A stretch of DNA of 40,828 nucleotides, taken from UHGV virus genome UHGV-0352991. The stretch is one strand, 5' to 3'. The stretch's first letter is position 1; each line of letters starts with the position of its first letter. Under the pieces are notes generated by a model, which saw only the letters and a program-made list of their open reading frames with translations, was not told the DNA's origin and did not search any database. Below, one piece after another: positions 9,128 through 40,164 of this stretch. Position numbers and translations under genes: made by a program. The DNA comes from a virus.

Positions 9128-9419
9128 AAGCCTCCGGAGTCATCTGCTCCATCTGATGTTTACGCCAGCTGTCATAGATCCTTTGCTGATCAATGGTAAA
9201 ATGTTTGATCACATTATCATCTGTTTCAGAACGTATCGCTACCACCCGGCCCAGGGGAGTTTCCGGTCCAAGTCCGGCCAGCAGGGAACGGAACTCATCC
9301 CAGCTGACCGTTTCAAACTCTTTCGTCCTTATACGCAACCCGTACTGCGTCATGAAACTGGAAATGATCAGGTCCCAGTCTTCAAACAGGTCGTAGTACG
9401 GGTCAGTGCTCTCCCTGGC
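9069..9419 (-). CDS. Tail assembly chaperone T-segment (possible frameshift extension of G)
   Basis: This reading frame is open from 9419, so it overlaps the last five codons of the upstream chaperone ORF. The first ATG is at 9353. Confidence 0.45.
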   Translation of the reverse strand, partial: ARESTDPYYDLFEDWDLIISSFMTQYGLRIRTKEFETVSWDEFRSLLAGLGPETPLGRVVAIRSETDDNVIKHFTIDQQRIYDSWRKHQMEQMTPEAYDREMEGLERMFAALCGGG

Positions 9420-9699
9420 TCACATCTCCTGTAGCAACAGAAACTGCTTCCTGGATAATGATCAACAGATCTGAAAACATAGGTTTCATTTTATCGATTT
9501 CTTTGCGGGACTTTTCTGGAAATATCAGATTGTATGCATCCATAATCTCTTTTGGTCCTGGCTGCTCATTTCCAAACAGCCCCATGACCTTAAGTAAAGT
9601 TGGGGCATCTGCAGCTACCTCAAGTTCTTTATCCCTGATCTTCAGTTTTGGATTTTCGTCAAAACTCAGCTTATCTGTAATATCTACTACTTTAGCCAT
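9403..9699 (-). CDS. Tail assembly chaperone (G-like)
   Basis: A 98-aa acidic protein between the major tail protein and the tape measure. Confidence 0.55.
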   Translation of the reverse strand: MAKVVDITDKLSFDENPKLKIRDKELEVAADAPTLLKVMGLFGNEQPGPKEIMDAYNLIFPEKSRKEIDKMKPMFSDLLIIIQEAVSVATGDVSQGEH

Positions 9700-9718
9700 T
9701 GCTTATATCCTCCTACTT

Positions 9719-10174
9719 TTACGCTGCCACTACCGGTGTATAGCTTGGTTTTCCATAACAGGTAACCTCAAACTCCAGGGCATCGATATTCGTTGTATCA
9801 CCGCCTCCTGGGGTAGTCACATTTACTACTACATCACAAGCCAGCTTCGCCCCGGATGTCATGGTCCACTCAAACTTGGTCATTACATCCTGGCCAAATT
9901 TCCATGCAAGGCCTGCGATATAATCATTTCCGGCATCACCTACGGAACGCTTTCCCTTAAAAGCAAAGCTGAGTTTTTTGCCAGTCATAGCAGATTTGGC
10001 CCAGCCTTCTGCGTCCATGGCATACCATTCTTCTGTGGTGCCGTCAATGGTTGGCGCAAAGTTCTCCAGATCCGCAGGCATTACCATATCGCCGTCCACG
10101 CTGTCCATACCCTTTGTACCAAATTTAAACACGTTATTGTGTACAGGATATACTTTTCCTCCTACTTCACTCAT
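9719..10174 (-). CDS. Major tail (tube) protein
   Basis: A 151-aa protein directly upstream of the chaperone pair, with a Gly/Thr-rich composition. Confidence 0.65.
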   Translation of the reverse strand: MSEVGGKVYPVHNNVFKFGTKGMDSVDGDMVMPADLENFAPTIDGTTEEWYAMDAEGWAKSAMTGKKLSFAFKGKRSVGDAGNDYIAGLAWKFGQDVMTKFEWTMTSGAKLACDVVVNVTTPGGGDTTNIDALEFEVTCYGKPSYTPVVAA

Positions 10175-20320: not shown

Positions 20321-20342
20321 ATACTGATAGCAACTAAAATCA

Positions 20343-20416
20343 TCGGAACGGAAGGATTCGAACCCTCGACACACTGGTTATAAGCCAGCTGCTCTTACCA
20401 ACTGAGCTACGTTCCA
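20343..20416 (-). tRNA. tRNA, anticodon UAU (Ile2-like, reads AUA); 74 nt, no encoded CCA
   Basis: Manual cloverleaf: acceptor UGGAACG/CGUUCCG, D-arm GCUC-AGUUGGUAA-GAGC, anticodon stem GCUGG/CCAGU with loop CUUAUAA, T-arm GAGGG-UUCGAAU-CCUUC. Confidence 0.6.
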
Positions 20417-20532
20417 AGGGGGAGACAGCAAGCTTTCACCTGCTGCCTAGTGGGGTTTGACGTAAGCCGCCGGCCGTATGCCTTTGGCTTCCACTCTATT
20501 GTATAACGACATCACCGACTAAACCGACCTTT

Positions 20533-33617: not shown

Positions 33618-33782
33618 TCAAATTGTCAAGTAAGATTATCGAAAAATTCAGAGGCATTATTTATATCTCCGTATTTTGCGATTTTTTCAGAACCTTATGG
33701 TTACATTATACGCGATTTATTCAGAATGTCAACAGGAATTTTTGCGATTTTTTCAGAAATTAGAAAAGGACGCAAAATAGGC

Positions 33783-34202
33783 ATGAAAGAACGAATTAAA
33801 GAATTATGTAAAGTTAGAAAAATCTCCATGAATATGCTTGAGCAAGAGTTGGGATTTGGAAAAGGCTATTTAAGCAAATTAGGACAAAGCACACCAAACA
33901 CATCAAAAATAAAAAAAATTGCTGATTACTTCGGCGTTACAGTTGACTATCTTATGACCGGTCATGTTGAACCAAAAGAAAAAGACCCAGAGCTGACAGC
34001 TCGAGACGAAAGGGATATTGCCAAAGACCTCGATCGGATTATGGGCGAAATTCGTAAAGGTGATGACGGTCCTCTGTACTACAATGGCGTAGAAATTGAT
34101 AATGCTTCCCTAAGTCTACTTCAGAATGCCATTGAATATGCCCTAAGAGAAACCAAGAAGGAAAACAAAGTTAAATACAATCCAAATAAGAATAAAAAGT
34201 AG
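33783..34202 (+). CDS. CI-like XRE-family repressor
   Basis: HTH ISMNMLEQELGFGKGYLSKL. AAAGGA RBS for the MKERIKEL start. An alternative upstream start is at 33726. Confidence 0.6.
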   Translation: MKERIKELCKVRKISMNMLEQELGFGKGYLSKLGQSTPNTSKIKKIADYFGVTVDYLMTGHVEPKEKDPELTARDERDIAKDLDRIMGEIRKGDDGPLYYNGVEIDNASLSLLQNAIEYALRETKKENKVKYNPNKNKK

Positions 34203-34212
34203 GTGACGCCGT

Positions 34213-34656
34213 TTGGAGACTGTAAATCATAAGATTCGTCGTTTAATCAGGTACTATGAACATCTAACCGGCAGCCGAGATCCTGTTACCATTGCACGGT
34301 ACGCCGGGATCCAGATTGCAGTATTACCGTTAGGCAATATTTCTGGAAACTACAAACTTTTAAAAAGAAAACGTTGGATTTTTATAAATGAGGATATCCC
34401 TTCTGACAGTCCACTCTTTCGGGTCGTTGTAGCACATGAATTAGGACATGCTTTATTACATAGAAAAGAGAATTGTGCTTTTCTAAAGAATAAAACATTA
34501 CTACTTACATCCGGAATAGAAAGAGAAGCAAATTTATTTGCCGCTTCCCTTTTGATATCAGATGAAATGTTGCAAGATTATTCCTGTTATACCCAGGATC
34601 AGTTCTGTCAGTGTACAGGATATCCAAAAGAACTTATTGAATTAAGGTTAAAATGA
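34213..34656 (+). CDS. ImmA/IrrE-family metallopeptidase
   Basis: HELGHALLH (HExxH) motif. It lies immediately downstream of the repressor. Confidence 0.7.
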   Translation: METVNHKIRRLIRYYEHLTGSRDPVTIARYAGIQIAVLPLGNISGNYKLLKRKRWIFINEDIPSDSPLFRVVVAHELGHALLHRKENCAFLKNKTLLLTSGIEREANLFAASLLISDEMLQDYSCYTQDQFCQCTGYPKELIELRLK

Positions 34657-34722: not shown

Positions 34723-35748
34723 ATGTTTTCAGCAGATGAAACCTTAAATATTTTGACTACTTGTGGAATTCCAGTAATTGATCCTTCCACAAATTATTGG
34801 TTTATCAGGACTAACGGAGGCGATAATTTTGAAAACTTTTACTTTGGGCAATATGTTGCCATCGGTTGGGATAAAATTGATGATCTTGATTTCATAAAAC
34901 ACTGCTCTCTTAATGATTTAAAAGATGAAATCATTGAGTCATATCCAGATGATTCTAAACCTGGATCAACTGCATCGCAAATTATGCGCTTTGTAAATGA
35001 CATGAAAATCGGTGACTACGTACTGGTTCCTGGAGCAAATTGTGACCGTATTGCTATTGGACAAATTACCAGCGACCCATACATCTACGAAGCCTCTGAT
35101 CAAGAACGTATTGATGTGATGTTTTTTGATGAAGAAATATCATATTTGAAACGTAGGAATGTCAATTGGATTGCAGATCGACCGTTCGAACGACGCGAAT
35201 TAGATCCAATGCTCATACCAATTATCTATTCCTATGGTACTATCGTCAACGCTAATCCGTATTCGGGCTTTATTAACCGAACCTTATATAGCTGTTATAT
35301 TCAAGGGAAAGAAATGCACGCAATATTTGATGTAACCACTACTCAAAACATTGCTGCTGTCGATTTATATAATTTTATCGACTCTATTTTTGAAAGTGCT
35401 GATATATATTCAGAATTATATAATATACCTATTGAAAAAAATGAATTTTCCATTAAAGCTGCTATAAACTCTCCTGGCCCTGTAGAAATTATTACATGTG
35501 CGACCAGTGCTTTCCTCTTATTGACATCATTATCATTATTTATCAATGGCGCTAAAGTAAAATTTTCCTTTGATATATTTAAAATTATTAAAGGAAATGT
35601 TGATATCGATTCACCTGGATTAATTGATGAAATTAGGAACTTTCAAAAAATAGCTACTGAAAATGAAATTAAGCTAAAGGAAACCGAGGCTAAAATTGAA
35701 GAATCAAGAAAAAAGCTAAAGATAAGAAAAAAAGAAAATAAAAAATAG
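34723..35748 (+). CDS. Orphan 341-aa protein: N-terminal globular domain + single TM + Lys-rich coiled C-tail (candidate Abi/defence effector)
   Basis: AT-rich gene with hydrophobic segment VEIITCATSAFLLLTSLSLFI and tail KLKETEAKIEESRKKLKIRKKENKK. A hairpin follows its stop. Confidence 0.5.
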   Translation: MFSADETLNILTTCGIPVIDPSTNYWFIRTNGGDNFENFYFGQYVAIGWDKIDDLDFIKHCSLNDLKDEIIESYPDDSKPGSTASQIMRFVNDMKIGDYVLVPGANCDRIAIGQITSDPYIYEASDQERIDVMFFDEEISYLKRRNVNWIADRPFERRELDPMLIPIIYSYGTIVNANPYSGFINRTLYSCYIQGKEMHAIFDVTTTQNIAAVDLYNFIDSIFESADIYSELYNIPIEKNEFSIKAAINSPGPVEIITCATSAFLLLTSLSLFINGAKVKFSFDIFKIIKGNVDIDSPGLIDEIRNFQKIATENEIKLKETEAKIEESRKKLKIRKKENKK

Positions 35749-36064
35749 GGCTGGATACTTAATCCAGCCTCTCAATCATAAAACTTTTCTTTACAAATAT
35801 AAACGATGTAATCAAAAATAGGATTTCATGCAAATATATCTTTCCAGCAAATATAATTCTTGGCATATGCAGTAAAGAAATAAAGACAAGACGCTGTAAT
35901 AGATATGCAATAGAAAATAAAAATATATAAATACTATATTTTGAGGTGCAATATCTCATAACAAGACCCCCTTTCTTTATAGAACTATGATACATCACAT
36001 TGCGCCCTGTGACAACTTACGAATTCTTAATTTTAATATCCGATTATAGGGAGGAATATGTTTT

Positions 36065-36616
36065 ATGCCATTATTAAAAAACGATCAGTATACATCTGAA
36101 GACTACTGGAACCTACCGGAAGGCACCAGAGCAGAACTAATTGACGGAAAACTGTATGACATGGCACCACCCAGTCGAATCCACCAAAGACTTGTTTCTA
36201 AACTAACATCTGTTATTGATCAGTACATTAGTAATCATCACGGAAATTGTCAGGTATATCCTGCTCCATTTGCTGTTAATCTTGATGCTGATGATAAAGA
36301 CTGGGTAGAGCCAGATATTTCTGTTATCTGTGATCCTAATAAGCTTACCGATCGGGGATGCTCCGGAGCTCCTGACCTCATCTTCGAGATTGTATCCCCA
36401 TCTAGCCGCAAACTGGACTACGGGATAAAAAACGGCATTTATTCTCAGTCTGGTGTCCGCGAATACTGGATTGTGGATCCTGCGAAAGAGCGTGTCACCG
36501 TTTACCATTACGAAGATGATGCGGCTCCCGTAATCTACTCCTTCACGCAGGATATTCCGGTCGGAGTCTATCCGGGACTGACGATCAAAATTAATGATCT
36601 GTTGGAAAATTACTAA
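36065..36616 (+). CDS. Uma2/DUF820-family PD-(D/E)xK endonuclease
   Basis: PDLIFEIVSPSSRKLDYGIKNGIYSQSGVREYWIVDP matches the Uma2 signature. Confidence 0.65.
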   Translation: MPLLKNDQYTSEDYWNLPEGTRAELIDGKLYDMAPPSRIHQRLVSKLTSVIDQYISNHHGNCQVYPAPFAVNLDADDKDWVEPDISVICDPNKLTDRGCSGAPDLIFEIVSPSSRKLDYGIKNGIYSQSGVREYWIVDPAKERVTVYHYEDDAAPVIYSFTQDIPVGVYPGLTIKINDLLENY

Positions 36617-36644
36617 GCCACCTAAAAATGTTTAAACGGAGGGT

Positions 36645-37097
36645 ATGATGGACATCAATGAATATATTTCAACTCGACTTGATCCGCAAATTGAATGGTA
36701 TGATGAAAAATCAGTACACGCGCAAAAAAGATATAAACAATTTCAAGTAGTCGAAATCATTCTTGCCGCGTTCATACCTCTATTGTCCGGTTACACCTCA
36801 TTGTGTGATTTAATACCTATAATCATTGGTATTCTGGGTGCAATCATTGTGATTATCGAATCCGTTACAAAACTGTACAAGTATCATGAGAACTGGATTC
36901 AATACCGTTCCACCTGCGAAATGTTACTCTATCAAAAGCATTTGTACTTGACACGTTCTTTCCCTTACAATCCCAATGACGAGACTGTTGATAATATTTT
37001 TATCAAAAATGTGGAAGAGATCATGTCCGCAGAAAACCGCCATTGGAAAAGCATCAACACTGCAGAAAAAGGTAACTCAAAGCAGGATGCTAATTAA
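36645..37097 (+). CDS. SLATT-family (DUF4231) two-helix membrane protein
   Basis: [24 protein letters not shown], then two TM helices, then [13 protein letters not shown]. There is a 28-bp gap after Uma2 and an AGGG RBS. Confidence 0.55.
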
Positions 37098-37272
37098 TAC
37101 GCTCATAAGTCTTTTCAAAAATATCCGGCTTGCAGGGATATTTTTCCCCGTTTACACCAGTAATGATCCAGTCTCCCGGGGATGCTTTCATATCGCCTTC
37201 TAATGTGTGAATTATTTCCTCATGATCGATTTGATAAGCATCAACGATTACTGGTTTTTTACGAAATTTCAT
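37090..37272 (-). CDS. Conserved small phage protein (60 aa; [10 protein letters not shown] ... PGDWII)
   Basis: GAGGTGA RBS. It is convergent with SLATT and overlaps it by 8 nt. Confidence 0.4.
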
Positions 37273-37308
37273 ATCTAATCACCTCATAATAATTGAAAGG
37301 AGAACCAA

Positions 37309-37728
37309 ATGCCAACTTTATACGATTACAGATTATTTATCAGCCACGCATGGAAATATGGTGCCGATTACGACAATCTTGTTAAATTGCTGAATAATGC
37401 CAATTACTTTTCATATCGCAATTATTCAGCCCCACGTGAGAAACCTCTTTTCCCAGCAGGAACACCAGCCACAAATGCTGAAATCAGAAGGCTTATCACG
37501 CAAAAAATCGCCCCATCTCAAATAACAATCGTCATTGCAGGTATGTACACTTCTTATCGCGAATGGATGCAATATGAAATTGATGAATCTGTGCGAATGG
37601 GCAAGCCAATTCTCGGCATCCGTCCATGGGGCAATACTATGATGCCCGCATATGTATCTTTGTATGCCAATGAGACTGTTGGATGGAACACAGACTCCAT
37701 CGTTTCTGCTATCCGCAGGCTCGTATAA
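37309..37728 (+). CDS. TIR-like domain protein (DUF1863 / ThsB-like)
   Basis: N-terminal LFISHAWKYGADYDNLVKLL resembles the bacterial TIR-like (v)FISY..d signature. GAAAGGAGAA RBS. Confidence 0.5.
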   Translation: MPTLYDYRLFISHAWKYGADYDNLVKLLNNANYFSYRNYSAPREKPLFPAGTPATNAEIRRLITQKIAPSQITIVIAGMYTSYREWMQYEIDESVRMGKPILGIRPWGNTMMPAYVSLYANETVGWNTDSIVSAIRRLV

Positions 37729-37961
37729 TTTATTATCTATACTTATAATATCATGTCATTTAGTTATATACAACAATTTGCAAAGTAAATGAAAAACCGC
37801 CCGGTATTGGCGTACCAAACGGCTTTACATAGATTTTCTCTTGCCAGTCTCCTGGCCAGATATAAATCAGTCTGAACACCTGAATTATATCATCTCCAGG
37901 ACGTCTGTGCAAGGGGAGTCTTTTTTGTACTCATTTTTACCTCAAAACAAAGGAATTTATC

Positions 37962-37999: not shown

Positions 38000-39145
38000 A
38001 TGCCAAGAAGAAAAAAGCACAGCCGCCTTCCCAACGGCTACGGCTCCATCCGCTACCTGGGAAAAAACCGGAAGAACCCATATGCAGTCCATCCGCCTGC
38101 AAATATCGACGGTGACCGCCCTGCAGCCCTCTGTTACGTTGATGACTGGATGAAGGGCTTCATCATACTGACTGCCTACAAAGCCGGCACTTATAAGCCT
38201 GGTATGGAAAAGGACCTGCAAGTATTATCTACAGACGAAAAGGATCTGGACACTCTGGCTCAGAAGCTCATGGCAGACTACAGCCTGATCAAGGGCGTAA
38301 CTCCACCAGAAAAGCCTAAGACCTTTGCAGACGTCTACCAGCTTTTCTATGCGAGAAAATTCCGCGAAGGCAATAAACTTTCAAAAAGCAGTAAAGATTC
38401 TATGAGAGCAGCCTACAGAAACTGTTCTATTCTTCATGATCGCCCATGGAACTCTTTAAAATCAGTCGATTTTCAAAATGTTTTAGACAACTGCCCTCTT
38501 AAGTATAGTAGCATCGAACTAATACGAAACCTTTTTCGCCAAATGTGTACTTTTGCCGTAGATACCGATATTTCTGATAAGAATTACGGACAAAAACTGA
38601 TAATCAATAAAGACGATGATGATGAACATGGCGTTCCACTTACTACCAGGGATTTATTGACTTTATGGTGCCATTCAGATAATGACACTGTAGAATTGCT
38701 CTTAATACTCTGCTATTCCGGCTGGCGTATTAATGAGGTTCCTAAATTACGCGTTGATCTGGAGAATGGTTACTACGAAGGCGGCATAAAAACCAAAGCT
38801 GGCAAAGACAGGATTGTTCCTATTCATTCTTCTGTCTATCCTCTTGTAAAACGCCGATATGAAAGATATGGCACTCTTTTACCTATAAGCACATGCGCTT
38901 TCAGGCAAAACATGTACCAGGTCTTAGCACAGTTGGGAATAGAAAAACACACACCACATGACTGCCGACACACATTCTCAAAATTTTGTGAACTCTATCA
39001 TGTAAATGAAAATGACAGAAAACGCATGCTTGGACATTCCTTTGGAAATGATGTTACTAACCGTGTTTACGGTCACCGTGATTTAAAAGATCTGAAAATG
39101 GAAATTGAGAAAATAGATAAAGAATATTTTGTGACTTTATTGTGA
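38000..39145 (+). CDS. int: Tyrosine site-specific integrase
   Basis: C-terminal catalytic region HDCRHTF ... LGHS...YGH (R-H-R-Y residues). It sits at the edge of the lysogeny module. Confidence 0.85.
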   Translation: MPRRKKHSRLPNGYGSIRYLGKNRKNPYAVHPPANIDGDRPAALCYVDDWMKGFIILTAYKAGTYKPGMEKDLQVLSTDEKDLDTLAQKLMADYSLIKGVTPPEKPKTFADVYQLFYARKFREGNKLSKSSKDSMRAAYRNCSILHDRPWNSLKSVDFQNVLDNCPLKYSSIELIRNLFRQMCTFAVDTDISDKNYGQKLIINKDDDDEHGVPLTTRDLLTLWCHSDNDTVELLLILCYSGWRINEVPKLRVDLENGYYEGGIKTKAGKDRIVPIHSSVYPLVKRRYERYGTLLPISTCAFRQNMYQVLAQLGIEKHTPHDCRHTFSKFCELYHVNENDRKRMLGHSFGNDVTNRVYGHRDLKDLKMEIEKIDKEYFVTLL

Positions 39146-39396
39146 CCAATAGACCCCAAGAATACCGATTTTTTCTAAAGGATTCAAAAGGCTGGAGATT
39201 GAAAGAAACCGCATAAAACCTTGGTTTTCATGCAGTTTCCGTTCAATTCCGATTACTTTAAAACGGTAAAGTTTTTAAGTATTATTTAAATTTAATATCA
39301 AGAAAAACCTTGTATTTCCTAGTTTTCTTATTTTATTTGTGACTTTATTGTGACTAATAGGGCAAAATAAACCTAAAGTTTTTAAGAGAATTTATA
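39127..39396. repeat. attP-like region: 24-bp direct repeat TTGTGACTTTATTGTGAC(C/T)AATAG (x2, first copy overlaps int stop) plus TAAAGTTTTTAAG x2 and AAACCTTG x2
   Basis: Repeats at ~39129-39152 and ~39337-39360. Shorter repeats at ~39269 and ~39375. The AT-rich non-coding region lies between int and the endolysin. Confidence 0.4.
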
Positions 39397-40164
39397 TTAT
39401 TTTACAAGGCCCGGATAATGGAGGGCGCCGTCCTGATCCGGAGTTAGGACTACTGGTTCAGTTGCCATGCGGCCGGTCTGATCCAGGTAGTACCACTTAC
39501 CACTGATCGTCTGAAGGCCTTTGAGCATGGCACCGTCAGGGCCAAGGTAATACCAGGAACCTTTGTATTGGTACCAGGTGTCATGGACCATCATTCCGGC
39601 ACCGTCGAACCAGTACCACTTATCACCGTCCTGCTGCCATTTGTCAGAGACGTATTCCCCGGATCCATCATCTTTATAGAAACGCCAACCGCCATTTTCC
39701 TGCTGCCAGCCCGTCTTAATTGTAACAGGTGTTAAAAATAGTTTTCGTTCTTCCTGGCGTCTCCTAGTAAGGCCTGCAAGGACCTTTCCGCCAGCTTTAT
39801 TGTATTCCAGGATCTTAGCCGCTATCTCAGAACGGGTACGAGCGCCTTTAGCCGTCAATCCATCAATGCTTCCGATGTTGTACGCAAAACTTACTAAGGC
39901 ATCATACTCGTTCTGGTTCCAGTTGTAAGCACTATACTTATCCACCTTTGGACCATACTTTTTATCTACAGACTGTCTTAACCAGTCATCTGCTGTAGCC
40001 TGACTGATTTTCAAGCCCTGACAGATGGTTGTGCCGGTAATGGCTTTATCTGCGTTAGTGGTGCCATAGCCGATAGTCCAGACACCTACAGCATCCTGGT
40101 AGGCGGTCAGGCGGCAGCCTTCAAATTTTTTTATGAGATTTAATCCATTATCTGATATTTTCAT
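39397..40164 (-). CDS. Endolysin: N-terminal lysozyme domain + C-terminal cell-wall-binding (choline-binding-type YG/WY) repeats
   Basis: LIKKFEGCRLTAYQDAVGVWTIGYG lysozyme signature. Repeats KWYWFDGAGMM, GSWYYLGPDGAM and GKWYYLDQTGRM. Confidence 0.8.
   Translation of the reverse strand: MKISDNGLNLIKKFEGCRLTAYQDAVGVWTIGYGTTNADKAITGTTICQGLKISQATADDWLRQSVDKKYGPKVDKYSAYNWNQNEYDALVSFAYNIGSIDGLTAKGARTRSEIAAKILEYNKAGGKVLAGLTRRRQEERKLFLTPVTIKTGWQQENGGWRFYKDDGSGEYVSDKWQQDGDKWYWFDGAGMMVHDTWYQYKGSWYYLGPDGAMLKGLQTISGKWYYLDQTGRMATEPVVLTPDQDGALHYPGLVK

Follow-up and report, generated by a model that had tools for sequence, protein, structure and literature searches.

The virus genome UHGV-0352991, analysed here over its full 40,828 nucleotides (the window), carries between its ImmA and integrase genes a small cluster encoding an Uma2-family nuclease, a SLATT-domain membrane protein and a TIR protein, together with a 60-residue protein, hereafter p60, encoded on the opposite strand. 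In a preliminary description, the Uma2, SLATT and TIR genes were proposed to form an anti-phage or abortive-infection system carried as prophage cargo. The four open reading frames, the spacing of the Uma2 and SLATT genes and the convergent orientation of the small gene are as described there. The core of the cluster is a new member of type VII Thoeris, a system already known, though described only very recently, and a constant antisense PGDYG-type gene, p60, sets its phage-borne form apart. The locus is best explained, with a probability of about three in four, as a prophage-borne type VII Thoeris core (TIR and SLATT) to which p60 belongs as a third component and beside which Uma2 is independent cargo. 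The cluster comprises the following features:

36065-36616, plus strand: Uma2-family PD-(D/E)xK nuclease, 183 residues (Pfam Uma2, 8.7e-35, 120 bits, cutoff 27)
36645-37097, plus strand: thsH-like SLATT effector, 150 residues, a single SLATT/DUF4231 domain, 28 bp after the Uma2 gene
37090-37272, minus strand: p60, a PGDYG-type protein of 60 residues, convergent with the SLATT gene and overlapping its 3' end by 8 bp
37280-37285, minus strand: ribosome-binding site of p60 (GAGGTG)
37309-37728, plus strand: thsB-like TIR protein, stand-alone, 139 residues
37759-37732, minus strand: sigma-70-like promoter (ATGACA-16-GATAAT), shortly beyond the end of the TIR gene and directed antisense through thsB toward p60
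36626-37799, plus strand: mobile SLATT-p60-TIR module of about 1.2 kb (blastn against the Uma2-less cassettes L176-L178 and L181, 87-89% identity over exactly that span)

The TIR and SLATT genes as a type VII Thoeris core

The domain assignments of the preliminary description were confirmed by profile searches and structure prediction. The TIR protein matches the Pfam family ThsB_TIR (1.5e-16, 61 bits, cutoff 21) and the PADLOC model for ThsB (8e-15). Its SxWxxE-type motif, with W86 and the catalytic glutamate E90, is invariant in 19 homologues with identity down to 64%, and E90 is aligned with the glutamate of the ThsB structure 8fz9 in a sequence-profile match. Similarly, the AlphaFold model of the protein (predicted local distance difference test score, pLDDT, 82.6) matches the solved ThsB TIR structures 8fz9, 9b7d, 8wcf, 8v6t and 6lhy. 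The SLATT protein is matched above cutoff by DUF4231 (9.3e-25), SLATT_1 (5.3e-11) and SLATT_3 (3.4e-6), and its two hydrophobic stretches (residues ~33-52 and 54-75) are consistent with a two-helix membrane hairpin. The PADLOC library used, which dates from 2023, recognises the TIR and Uma2 (PDC-S03) proteins, and the SLATT protein through a weak match (0.0032) to the two-transmembrane (2TM) effector of the cyclic oligonucleotide-based anti-phage signalling system (CBASS). An exact look-up of the SLATT protein returned a single 1-kb contig only.

The linkage of TIR and SLATT genes extends well beyond this phage. A profile derived from the TIR alignment and searched against one genome per species yielded 80 loci from many bacterial and some archaeal phyla, whose open reading frames were classed with iterated hidden Markov models built from the cassette proteins of UHGV-0352991. 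A SLATT gene adjoins the TIR gene in about 45 of these 80 loci. In Firmicutes and gut metagenome-assembled genomes, the order is SLATT, p60 (minus strand), TIR, while in Proteobacteria, Acidobacteriota, Spirochaetota, Bacteroidota and others the TIR gene comes first and is often overlapped by the SLATT gene. Outside Firmicutes, the SLATT partner is either a SLATT_3+SLATT_1 tandem of ~290-308 residues with four helices, overlapping the TIR stop codon in L023, L029, L055 and other loci (e.g. L055:6363-7289), or a short single domain, as in L028, L041 and L039. Five Dehalococcoidia loci (L027, L030, L033, L036 and L045) contain no SLATT gene and have a second, divergent ThsB_TIR gene about 500 bp downstream of the TIR gene. 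In a second set, seeded with the SLATT protein and made of 79 viral contigs, practically all contigs with room for the whole unit carry SLATT, p60 (minus strand) and TIR. Four of the 79 (L245-L247 and L250), with a TIR from a subfamily further removed (ThsB_TIR, 5.9e-20), have the order SLATT-TIR-p60, and locus L040 has the order TIR-SLATT-p60; in both arrangements, p60 lies on the minus strand, abutting and antisense.

The unit is also mobile. Exact copies of the TIR protein were found in 906 index blocks of an assembly collection, which shows that prophages of human-gut Lachnospiraceae very often carry type VII Thoeris as cargo. The block formed by Uma2, SLATT, p60 (minus strand) and TIR has identical spacing in ten long contigs with differing surroundings, namely four recombinases (two tyrosine and two serine), XRE with ImmA or an S24-type CI repressor, and varying upstream cargo genes. 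As the same block stands beside unrelated recombinases and repressors, the cassette is mobile, and its ~1.2-kb core hops between prophages with unrelated integrases and repressors. Among the Uma2-bearing cassettes, DNA homology starts exactly at the Uma2 start codon (36065) and stops at ~37941-37955. Within the unit, TIR and SLATT clades are reshuffled around p60: relative to UHGV-0352991, the SLATT and TIR proteins are 68% and 39% identical in L118, and 34% and 70% identical in L130. TIR and SLATT subtypes are mixed and matched in this way over a set of 44 non-redundant SLATT-p60-TIR units, which would indicate that recombination inside the unit is frequent. In sum, TIR and SLATT constitute the core, p60 the constant third member of the phage-borne lineage and Uma2 a facultative, recurrent neighbour.

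TIR genes located beside SLATT-domain genes have been named type VII Thoeris, with the components ThsB and ThsH (Yirmiya et al., bioRxiv 10.64898/2025.12.03.692087, December 2025). Three type VII operons, from Pseudohongiella nitratireducens, an Alteromonadales scaffold and Bacillus licheniformis, have been shown to protect against phages, and their three TIRs produce canonical cyclic ADP-ribose (cADPR) on infection only (Yirmiya et al., 2025). It has also been shown that addition of cADPR is toxic to cells carrying type VII Thoeris, that the system is blocked neither by Tad1 nor by MoTad2, and that ThsH is modelled by AlphaFold3 as a membrane-spanning oligomer with basic pockets (Yirmiya et al., 2025). 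The preliminary description, which considered the combination to be uncharacterised, is thus superseded on this point: the Uma2-SLATT-TIR cluster as first described is not a new system, and its core is type VII Thoeris, which in this respect makes the finding ordinary. Its proposal of a Thoeris-like logic, in which a TIR signal generator and a SLATT membrane effector would lead to abortive infection, agrees by analogy with the published type VII system. The preprint makes no mention of prophages, antisense genes, Uma2 or PGDYG proteins.

UHGV-0352991 shares with type VII Thoeris a stand-alone ThsB-type TIR with its catalytic glutamate and a SLATT membrane effector, in a linkage kept across phyla. 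Its system differs by forming a mobile cassette that Lachnospiraceae prophages carry within their lysogeny module, by having thsH first with a conserved antisense 60-residue gene between thsH and thsB, and by its single 150-residue SLATT domain, in contrast to the ~300-residue SLATT_3+SLATT_1 tandem of many proteobacterial partners. Other signalling systems fit less well. No effector of type I or type II Thoeris (ThsA with SIR2-SLOG, or a Macro domain with a transmembrane segment) was found by Pfam or PADLOC searches in any gene of 33.7-39.1 kb, and the same searches returned no CD-NTase/SMODS synthase of CBASS among the eight neighbouring proteins of this interval. Thus, while CBASS with SLATT/2TM effectors relies on the same effector superfamily and, presumably, on membrane disruption, the adjacent signal enzyme here is a TIR.

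The TIR of UHGV-0352991 was compared with the TIR domain sequences of Table S1 of the preprint, in a portion that covered few SLATT rows. Within this portion, it is 35% identical to the validated Pseudohongiella type VII ThsB (E 9e-30), only weakly similar to the other two validated type VII ThsBs, and 33-38% identical to two type VIII ThsBs, which also make cADPR. Of the characterised TIRs in the same portion, the nearest is a type IV ThsB, that of E. coli 328, with 43% identity across 131 residues and N7-cADPR as its signal, and TIRs listed by the authors with "3TM" effectors reach 44-48% identity. The protein resembles members of TIR cluster 2734565194 of the preprint and, within the portion compared, groups with the TIR cluster that holds types IV, VII and VIII. 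Type IV Thoeris of E. coli 328, despite having the nearest characterised TIR, works with a caspase-like effector, whereas the partner here is SLATT. Since all three validated type VII TIRs make cADPR although they are spread over three different TIR clusters, the type of effector is the better predictor of the signal, and by this analogy the signal of the UHGV-0352991 TIR is most likely canonical cADPR.

In a lysogen, ThsH and ThsB would be supplied by the lysogeny-strand transcript. Activation of ThsB by a superinfecting phage would then convert NAD+ into a cyclic ADP-ribose signal, probably cADPR, which would drive oligomerisation of the SLATT protein and breach of the membrane. The infected cell is predicted to die or to stop growing before the cycle of the invader completes, i.e. 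abortive infection.

The antisense gene p60 as a third component

The small convergent gene, the existence of which had been noted correctly, was passed over in the preliminary description. In fact, p60 is better conserved than any other member of the unit, and practically every phage-borne copy contains it. The protein matches phrog_419 (1.3e-26) and, with 21.7 bits against a cutoff of 27 (2.7e-4), positions 3-34 only of the 102-position Pfam profile PGDYG (PF14083). Among its longer relatives, 87 of 95 match PGDYG at E <= 0.001, and the identical protein UYJ45563.1 is named 'PGDYG domain-containing' by NCBI. The AlphaFold2 model (pLDDT 92) is a small beta-barrel, for which structure searches gave no informative neighbour and PDB sequence searches no match; a literature search on PGDYG found no paper.

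p60 is present and antisense in every Firmicutes or phage unit, and it is antisense and abutting in all three gene orders (SLATT-p60-TIR, SLATT-TIR-p60 and TIR-SLATT-p60). It is absent from proteobacterial type VII loci. Conservation of the three genes was compared across the 44 non-redundant SLATT-p60-TIR units, with the following result:

p60: mean amino-acid identity 0.72; fourfold-degenerate sites differing 0.68
TIR: mean amino-acid identity 0.51; fourfold-degenerate sites differing 0.675
SLATT: mean amino-acid identity 0.46; fourfold-degenerate sites differing 0.70

As divergence at fourfold-degenerate sites is equal in the three genes, the conservation of p60 acts at the protein level and not on an RNA or a recombination site. 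A nucleotide-level role, as antisense RNA or recombination linker, was ruled out as its cause, these sites having diverged like those of the flanking genes. In the phage-borne lineage, p60 is a true third component.

The arrangement of the genes implies that their transcripts overlap. The start codons of p60 and TIR are separated by 36 bp in UHGV-0352991 and by 19-81 bp among the related units, in which the 3' ends of p60 and SLATT usually overlap; with so short a gap and overlapping 3' ends, the transcripts must overlap. In 18 of the 41 non-redundant units examined, a sigma-70-like promoter on the minus strand (at least 9 of 12 consensus positions) lies in the 52 nt that follow the TIR stop codon; 3.6 were expected, the 300 shuffles reached 9 at most, and the plus strand gave 2. 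No excess over shuffles was found for plus-strand promoters of the TIR gene inside p60 or for minus-strand promoters in the 3' part of thsB, while minus-strand promoters in its 5' part are marginally above shuffles. A promoter-like site at 37315-37286 (minus strand) was considered and is not favoured, since transcription from it would start downstream of the p60 ribosome-binding site. Given that no excess of TIR promoters exists inside p60, thsB is probably co-transcribed with thsH by read-through. From these positions, the p60 mRNA would run antisense along the full length of thsB. No other gene of the lysogeny module lies on the minus strand, which p60 shares with the lytic genes. In excludon-type arrangements, described in Listeria, an mRNA runs antisense over a neighbouring gene of opposite orientation and expression becomes either/or. 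The p60 mRNA, predicted from promoter positions alone to run antisense across thsB, would resemble such an arrangement.

The p60 family is not restricted to Thoeris loci. It comprises 6,099 matches in 90% clusters and 22,236 clusters at 50% identity. Among the best 50 viral homologues, about 22 lie in a TIR/SLATT context and the others in tail, lysis, replication or packaging modules, where they are co-directional with their neighbours; embedded and free copies are intermixed and up to 92% identical, and more distant homologues never stand beside a TIR gene. Some members are fused to other domains. Two divergent phage proteins have an N-terminal p60 domain and, after it, a domain resembling Tad2 (Thoeris anti-defence 2, PF11195). 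A search with one such fusion retrieved 3,773 proteins; of the 120 best clusters, 115 have both domains, and Palleronia, Shewanella and Fibrobacter are among the sources of the proteins. Among the other long p60 representatives (n = 95), fusions were found to PF21825 (Sequestin, one), to the restriction alleviation protein Lar (one) and to DUF551 (two). Sequestin is a 3'cADPR sponge which was itself discovered through its fusion to Tad2 and Acb4 (10.1101/2025.07.12.664507). By the same logic, the fusion of p60 to sponges makes it, by guilt by association only, a candidate anti-signalling domain. Some large proteins carry multiple p60/PGDYG copies, with about 30 in tandem in a protein of 3,743 residues of the representative library (P0361) and four to five in proteins of 600-1,450 residues.

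A less likely alternative is that p60 is a hitch-hiking phage moron which became caught between thsH and thsB in some ancestral phage and has since been passed on with the defence pair, to which it would have no functional link, the system being plain two-gene type VII Thoeris. It would account for the close homologues (up to 92% identical) in many unrelated phage contexts, for a family far larger than that of the TIR (6,099 against 712 matches) and for the proteobacterial loci devoid of p60. Against it, p60 is retained as an intact gene, with strong selection on its protein, even where TIR and SLATT have diverged to 37-46%, and it is antisense and abutting in three gene orders. Furthermore, TIR and SLATT clades were shuffled around p60 without ever losing it, the antisense promoter past thsB is conserved in position, and the fusion partners of p60 are Thoeris sponges.

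The reading proposed here, a type VII core with p60 as third component, has several observations to contend with. In sequence, the type IV ThsB and the TIRs that have "3TM" effectors as partners are closer to the TIR than the type VII ThsB is, so that the assignment of cADPR as its signal stays tentative. thsH and thsB are not directly adjacent, unlike in the validated type VII operons. Membership of type VII does not guarantee activity, as three of four tested Bacillus type VII operons gave no defence in B. subtilis (Yirmiya et al., 2025, Table S2). The evidence for the p60 promoter is consensus matching in related sequences, and about half of the closest phage homologues of p60 adjoin neither TIR nor SLATT. 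The domain is also very promiscuous, with many fusion partners across its 22,236 clusters and an additional presence in structural, lysis and replication modules, so that its fusion to sponges could reflect a generic role such as oligomerisation. Finally, all of the evidence is computational.

Possible roles of p60

What p60 does is a separate question, on which we lean, at somewhat less than even odds, toward a negative control element that restrains the system or switches it off. p60 would be synthesised from the promoter past thsB, either once the prophage enters its lytic cycle or continuously at a basal level. Its expression could silence thsB and thsH by convergent transcription, while the protein could neutralise the signal or the ThsB and ThsH proteins. 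With such restraint, neither the development of the prophage itself nor leaky TIR activity would trigger suicide. The arrangement would thereby offer a concrete answer as to how a prophage can equip its host for abortive infection and yet not kill itself when induced.

A more specific version, possible and rather doubtful, is that the PGDYG-type p60 domain acts against Thoeris as a new kind of module, which would bind cADPR-type signals as a sponge, hydrolyse them, or inhibit ThsB or ThsH directly. Phages at large would deploy it for counter-defence, on its own or in fusion with Tad2 or Sequestin, and prophages would have inserted it in reverse orientation into their own type VII Thoeris operon, where it would serve as a self-immunity switch. 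The antisense promoter past thsB would then both silence the defence genes and yield the inhibitor at the lytic switch. p60 is, like the Tad2 and Sequestin sponges, small, phage-borne and mostly stand-alone. It differs from them in matching neither family, in its different small beta-barrel fold and in being encoded within the defence operon and not in the invading phage. p60 itself has no Pfam match to Tad2 (PF11195), and its match to the SPO1 Tad2 structure is non-significant (E 2.4). To our knowledge, there is no inhibitor of cADPR-based Thoeris, which makes p60 a directly testable candidate. If this version is true, cADPR-based Thoeris, against which Tad1 and MoTad2 are ineffective, would have its first inhibitor in p60, and the cassette would be a clear case of a defence system with its own antidote.

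The converse, that p60 is a positive component acting as a sensor or adaptor which presents a phage cue to ThsB or passes the signal to the short SLATT protein, is improbable. The strict co-inheritance of p60 in the phage lineage and the bare 150-residue SLATT domain, which has no separate sensor domain, would suit such a role, and ancillary genes (Cap2/3 and Cap9-11) are known in some Thoeris operons (Yirmiya et al., 2025). Against it, a gene that lies antisense and whose predicted mRNA is complementary to thsB points to mutually exclusive more than to joint expression, bare short SLATT partners occur without p60 in other phyla (L028, L041 and L039), proteins of the same type occur in phages without TIR or SLATT, and the fusion partners of p60 are Thoeris inhibitors.

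Irrespective of the role of p60, annotation rules that demand thsB and its effector as immediate neighbours would miss the whole p60-bearing lineage.

The Uma2 gene and the phage setting

The Uma2 protein has a full-length match to PDC-S03 of PADLOC (1.9e-46), a single-gene candidate, and its residues E82, D84, D104, E108 and K122 are invariant in five copies that are 56-63% identical. Its inclusion in the system by the preliminary description is not borne out, the gene being missing from most related loci, variable in position and separable as a DNA module. It is present in 11 of the 79 SLATT-seeded viral loci, four times upstream, as in UHGV-0352991, and seven times downstream, in two other cassette types; in one of 17 Firmicutes-type genome loci, there downstream of the TIR gene; and in none of about 22 TIR-context loci seeded with p60. 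DNA homology splits the region into Uma2 (36065-36625) and SLATT-p60-TIR (36626-37799), and the existence of near-identical SLATT-p60-TIR cassettes without Uma2 (87-89%) indicates that the two modules are separable. In L008 and L010, a second Uma2 gene (9344-9890, minus strand; 63% identical) stands alone in the host chromosome, ~1.2 kb past the end of a prophage serine-recombinase gene and near cotJ spore-coat genes. From this distribution, Uma2 is best read as separate single-gene cargo, a candidate nuclease defence that tends to land in the same slot. Within the literature library searched, no paper on PDC-S03 and nothing relevant on Uma2 with phage defence was found; PDC-S03 is only a candidate defence gene, with no functional tie to the Thoeris pair.

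We consider it very improbable that Uma2, SLATT and TIR form one three-component system with the nuclease as second effector or sensor. The short gap on the same strand, the movement of the cassette as one block among the closest relatives and the recurrence of the same Uma2 subfamily beside the system in at least three configurations would agree with it, and rare two-effector Thoeris operons have been reported (Yirmiya et al., 2025). Most related units, however, lack Uma2 or carry it on the other side, near-identical cassettes exist without it, and the 63%-identical gene of L008 stands alone in the host chromosome; moreover, no nucleotide-sensor domain was found in the protein by Pfam, and PADLOC classes it as a single-gene candidate. 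Least credible of all is that the TIR is an NAD+-depleting effector or stand-alone NADase, of a kind that does exist among bacteria, beside an independent holin-like or superinfection-exclusion SLATT protein, as the TIR belongs to the ThsB_TIR family, which pairs with swappable partners (SLATT or a second TIR), groups with type IV, VII and VIII TIRs shown to make signals, and all TIR-SLATT pairs tested to date signal through cADPR (Yirmiya et al., 2025).

UHGV-0352991 is a complete temperate phage with a Lachnospiraceae host; a TIR and a 60-residue protein identical to those of the cassette are annotated in the Lachnospiraceae genome CP107199.1. Its lysogeny module is encoded on the plus strand and its structural and replication genes on the minus strand, the rest of the genome being of complete siphovirus type (tape measure, major head protein, portal, terminase, helicase/primase, polymerase and exonuclease). 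The cluster had been described as lying at an AT-rich prophage cargo site between ImmA and the integrase, and this proved accurate: the fraction of G+C is 0.32-0.40 across 33-38 kb and 0.45-0.56 in most of the phage, and both flanks were identified. The surrounding features are as follows:

33726-34202: XRE regulator gene, lysogeny-module flank of the cassette
34213-34656: ImmA/M78 gene, lysogeny-module flank of the cassette
34723-35748, plus strand: 341-residue gene between ImmA and the cassette (PADLOC PDC-S02, N-terminal half, 7.6e-22; phrog_10226, 2.8e-70)
35749-35769: palindromic GC-rich hairpin directly 3' of the stop codon of the 341-residue gene, scoring as a minus-strand terminator, outside the conserved cassette
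37793-37826: terminator-like hairpin (stem of 14 bp) that separates the cassette from the integrase region and marks the right-hand limit of the conserved module
38000-39145, plus strand: tyrosine integrase, right flank of the cassette
20342-20417, minus strand: tRNA-Ile (anticodon TAT), between the packaging and replication modules
39397-40164, minus strand: endolysin (lysozyme and choline-binding repeats)

The 341-residue gene was considered as a component of the system and dropped, having no homologue in any related locus. Its slot is a variable cargo position, in which other prophages with the same cassette carry choline-binding or DUF5067 proteins or an unknown protein of 222 residues. 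Beside the adjacent hairpin, an open reading frame of 79 residues (35759-35998, minus strand) looks spurious. A megablast search of 33.5-39.2 kb against 50,697 GenBank phages gave no match. The integrase (plus strand) and endolysin (minus strand) genes converge on a 250-bp gap (39146-39396), which would be the place of the phage attachment site (attP) if the sequence is that of a circularly permuted or excised phage genome.

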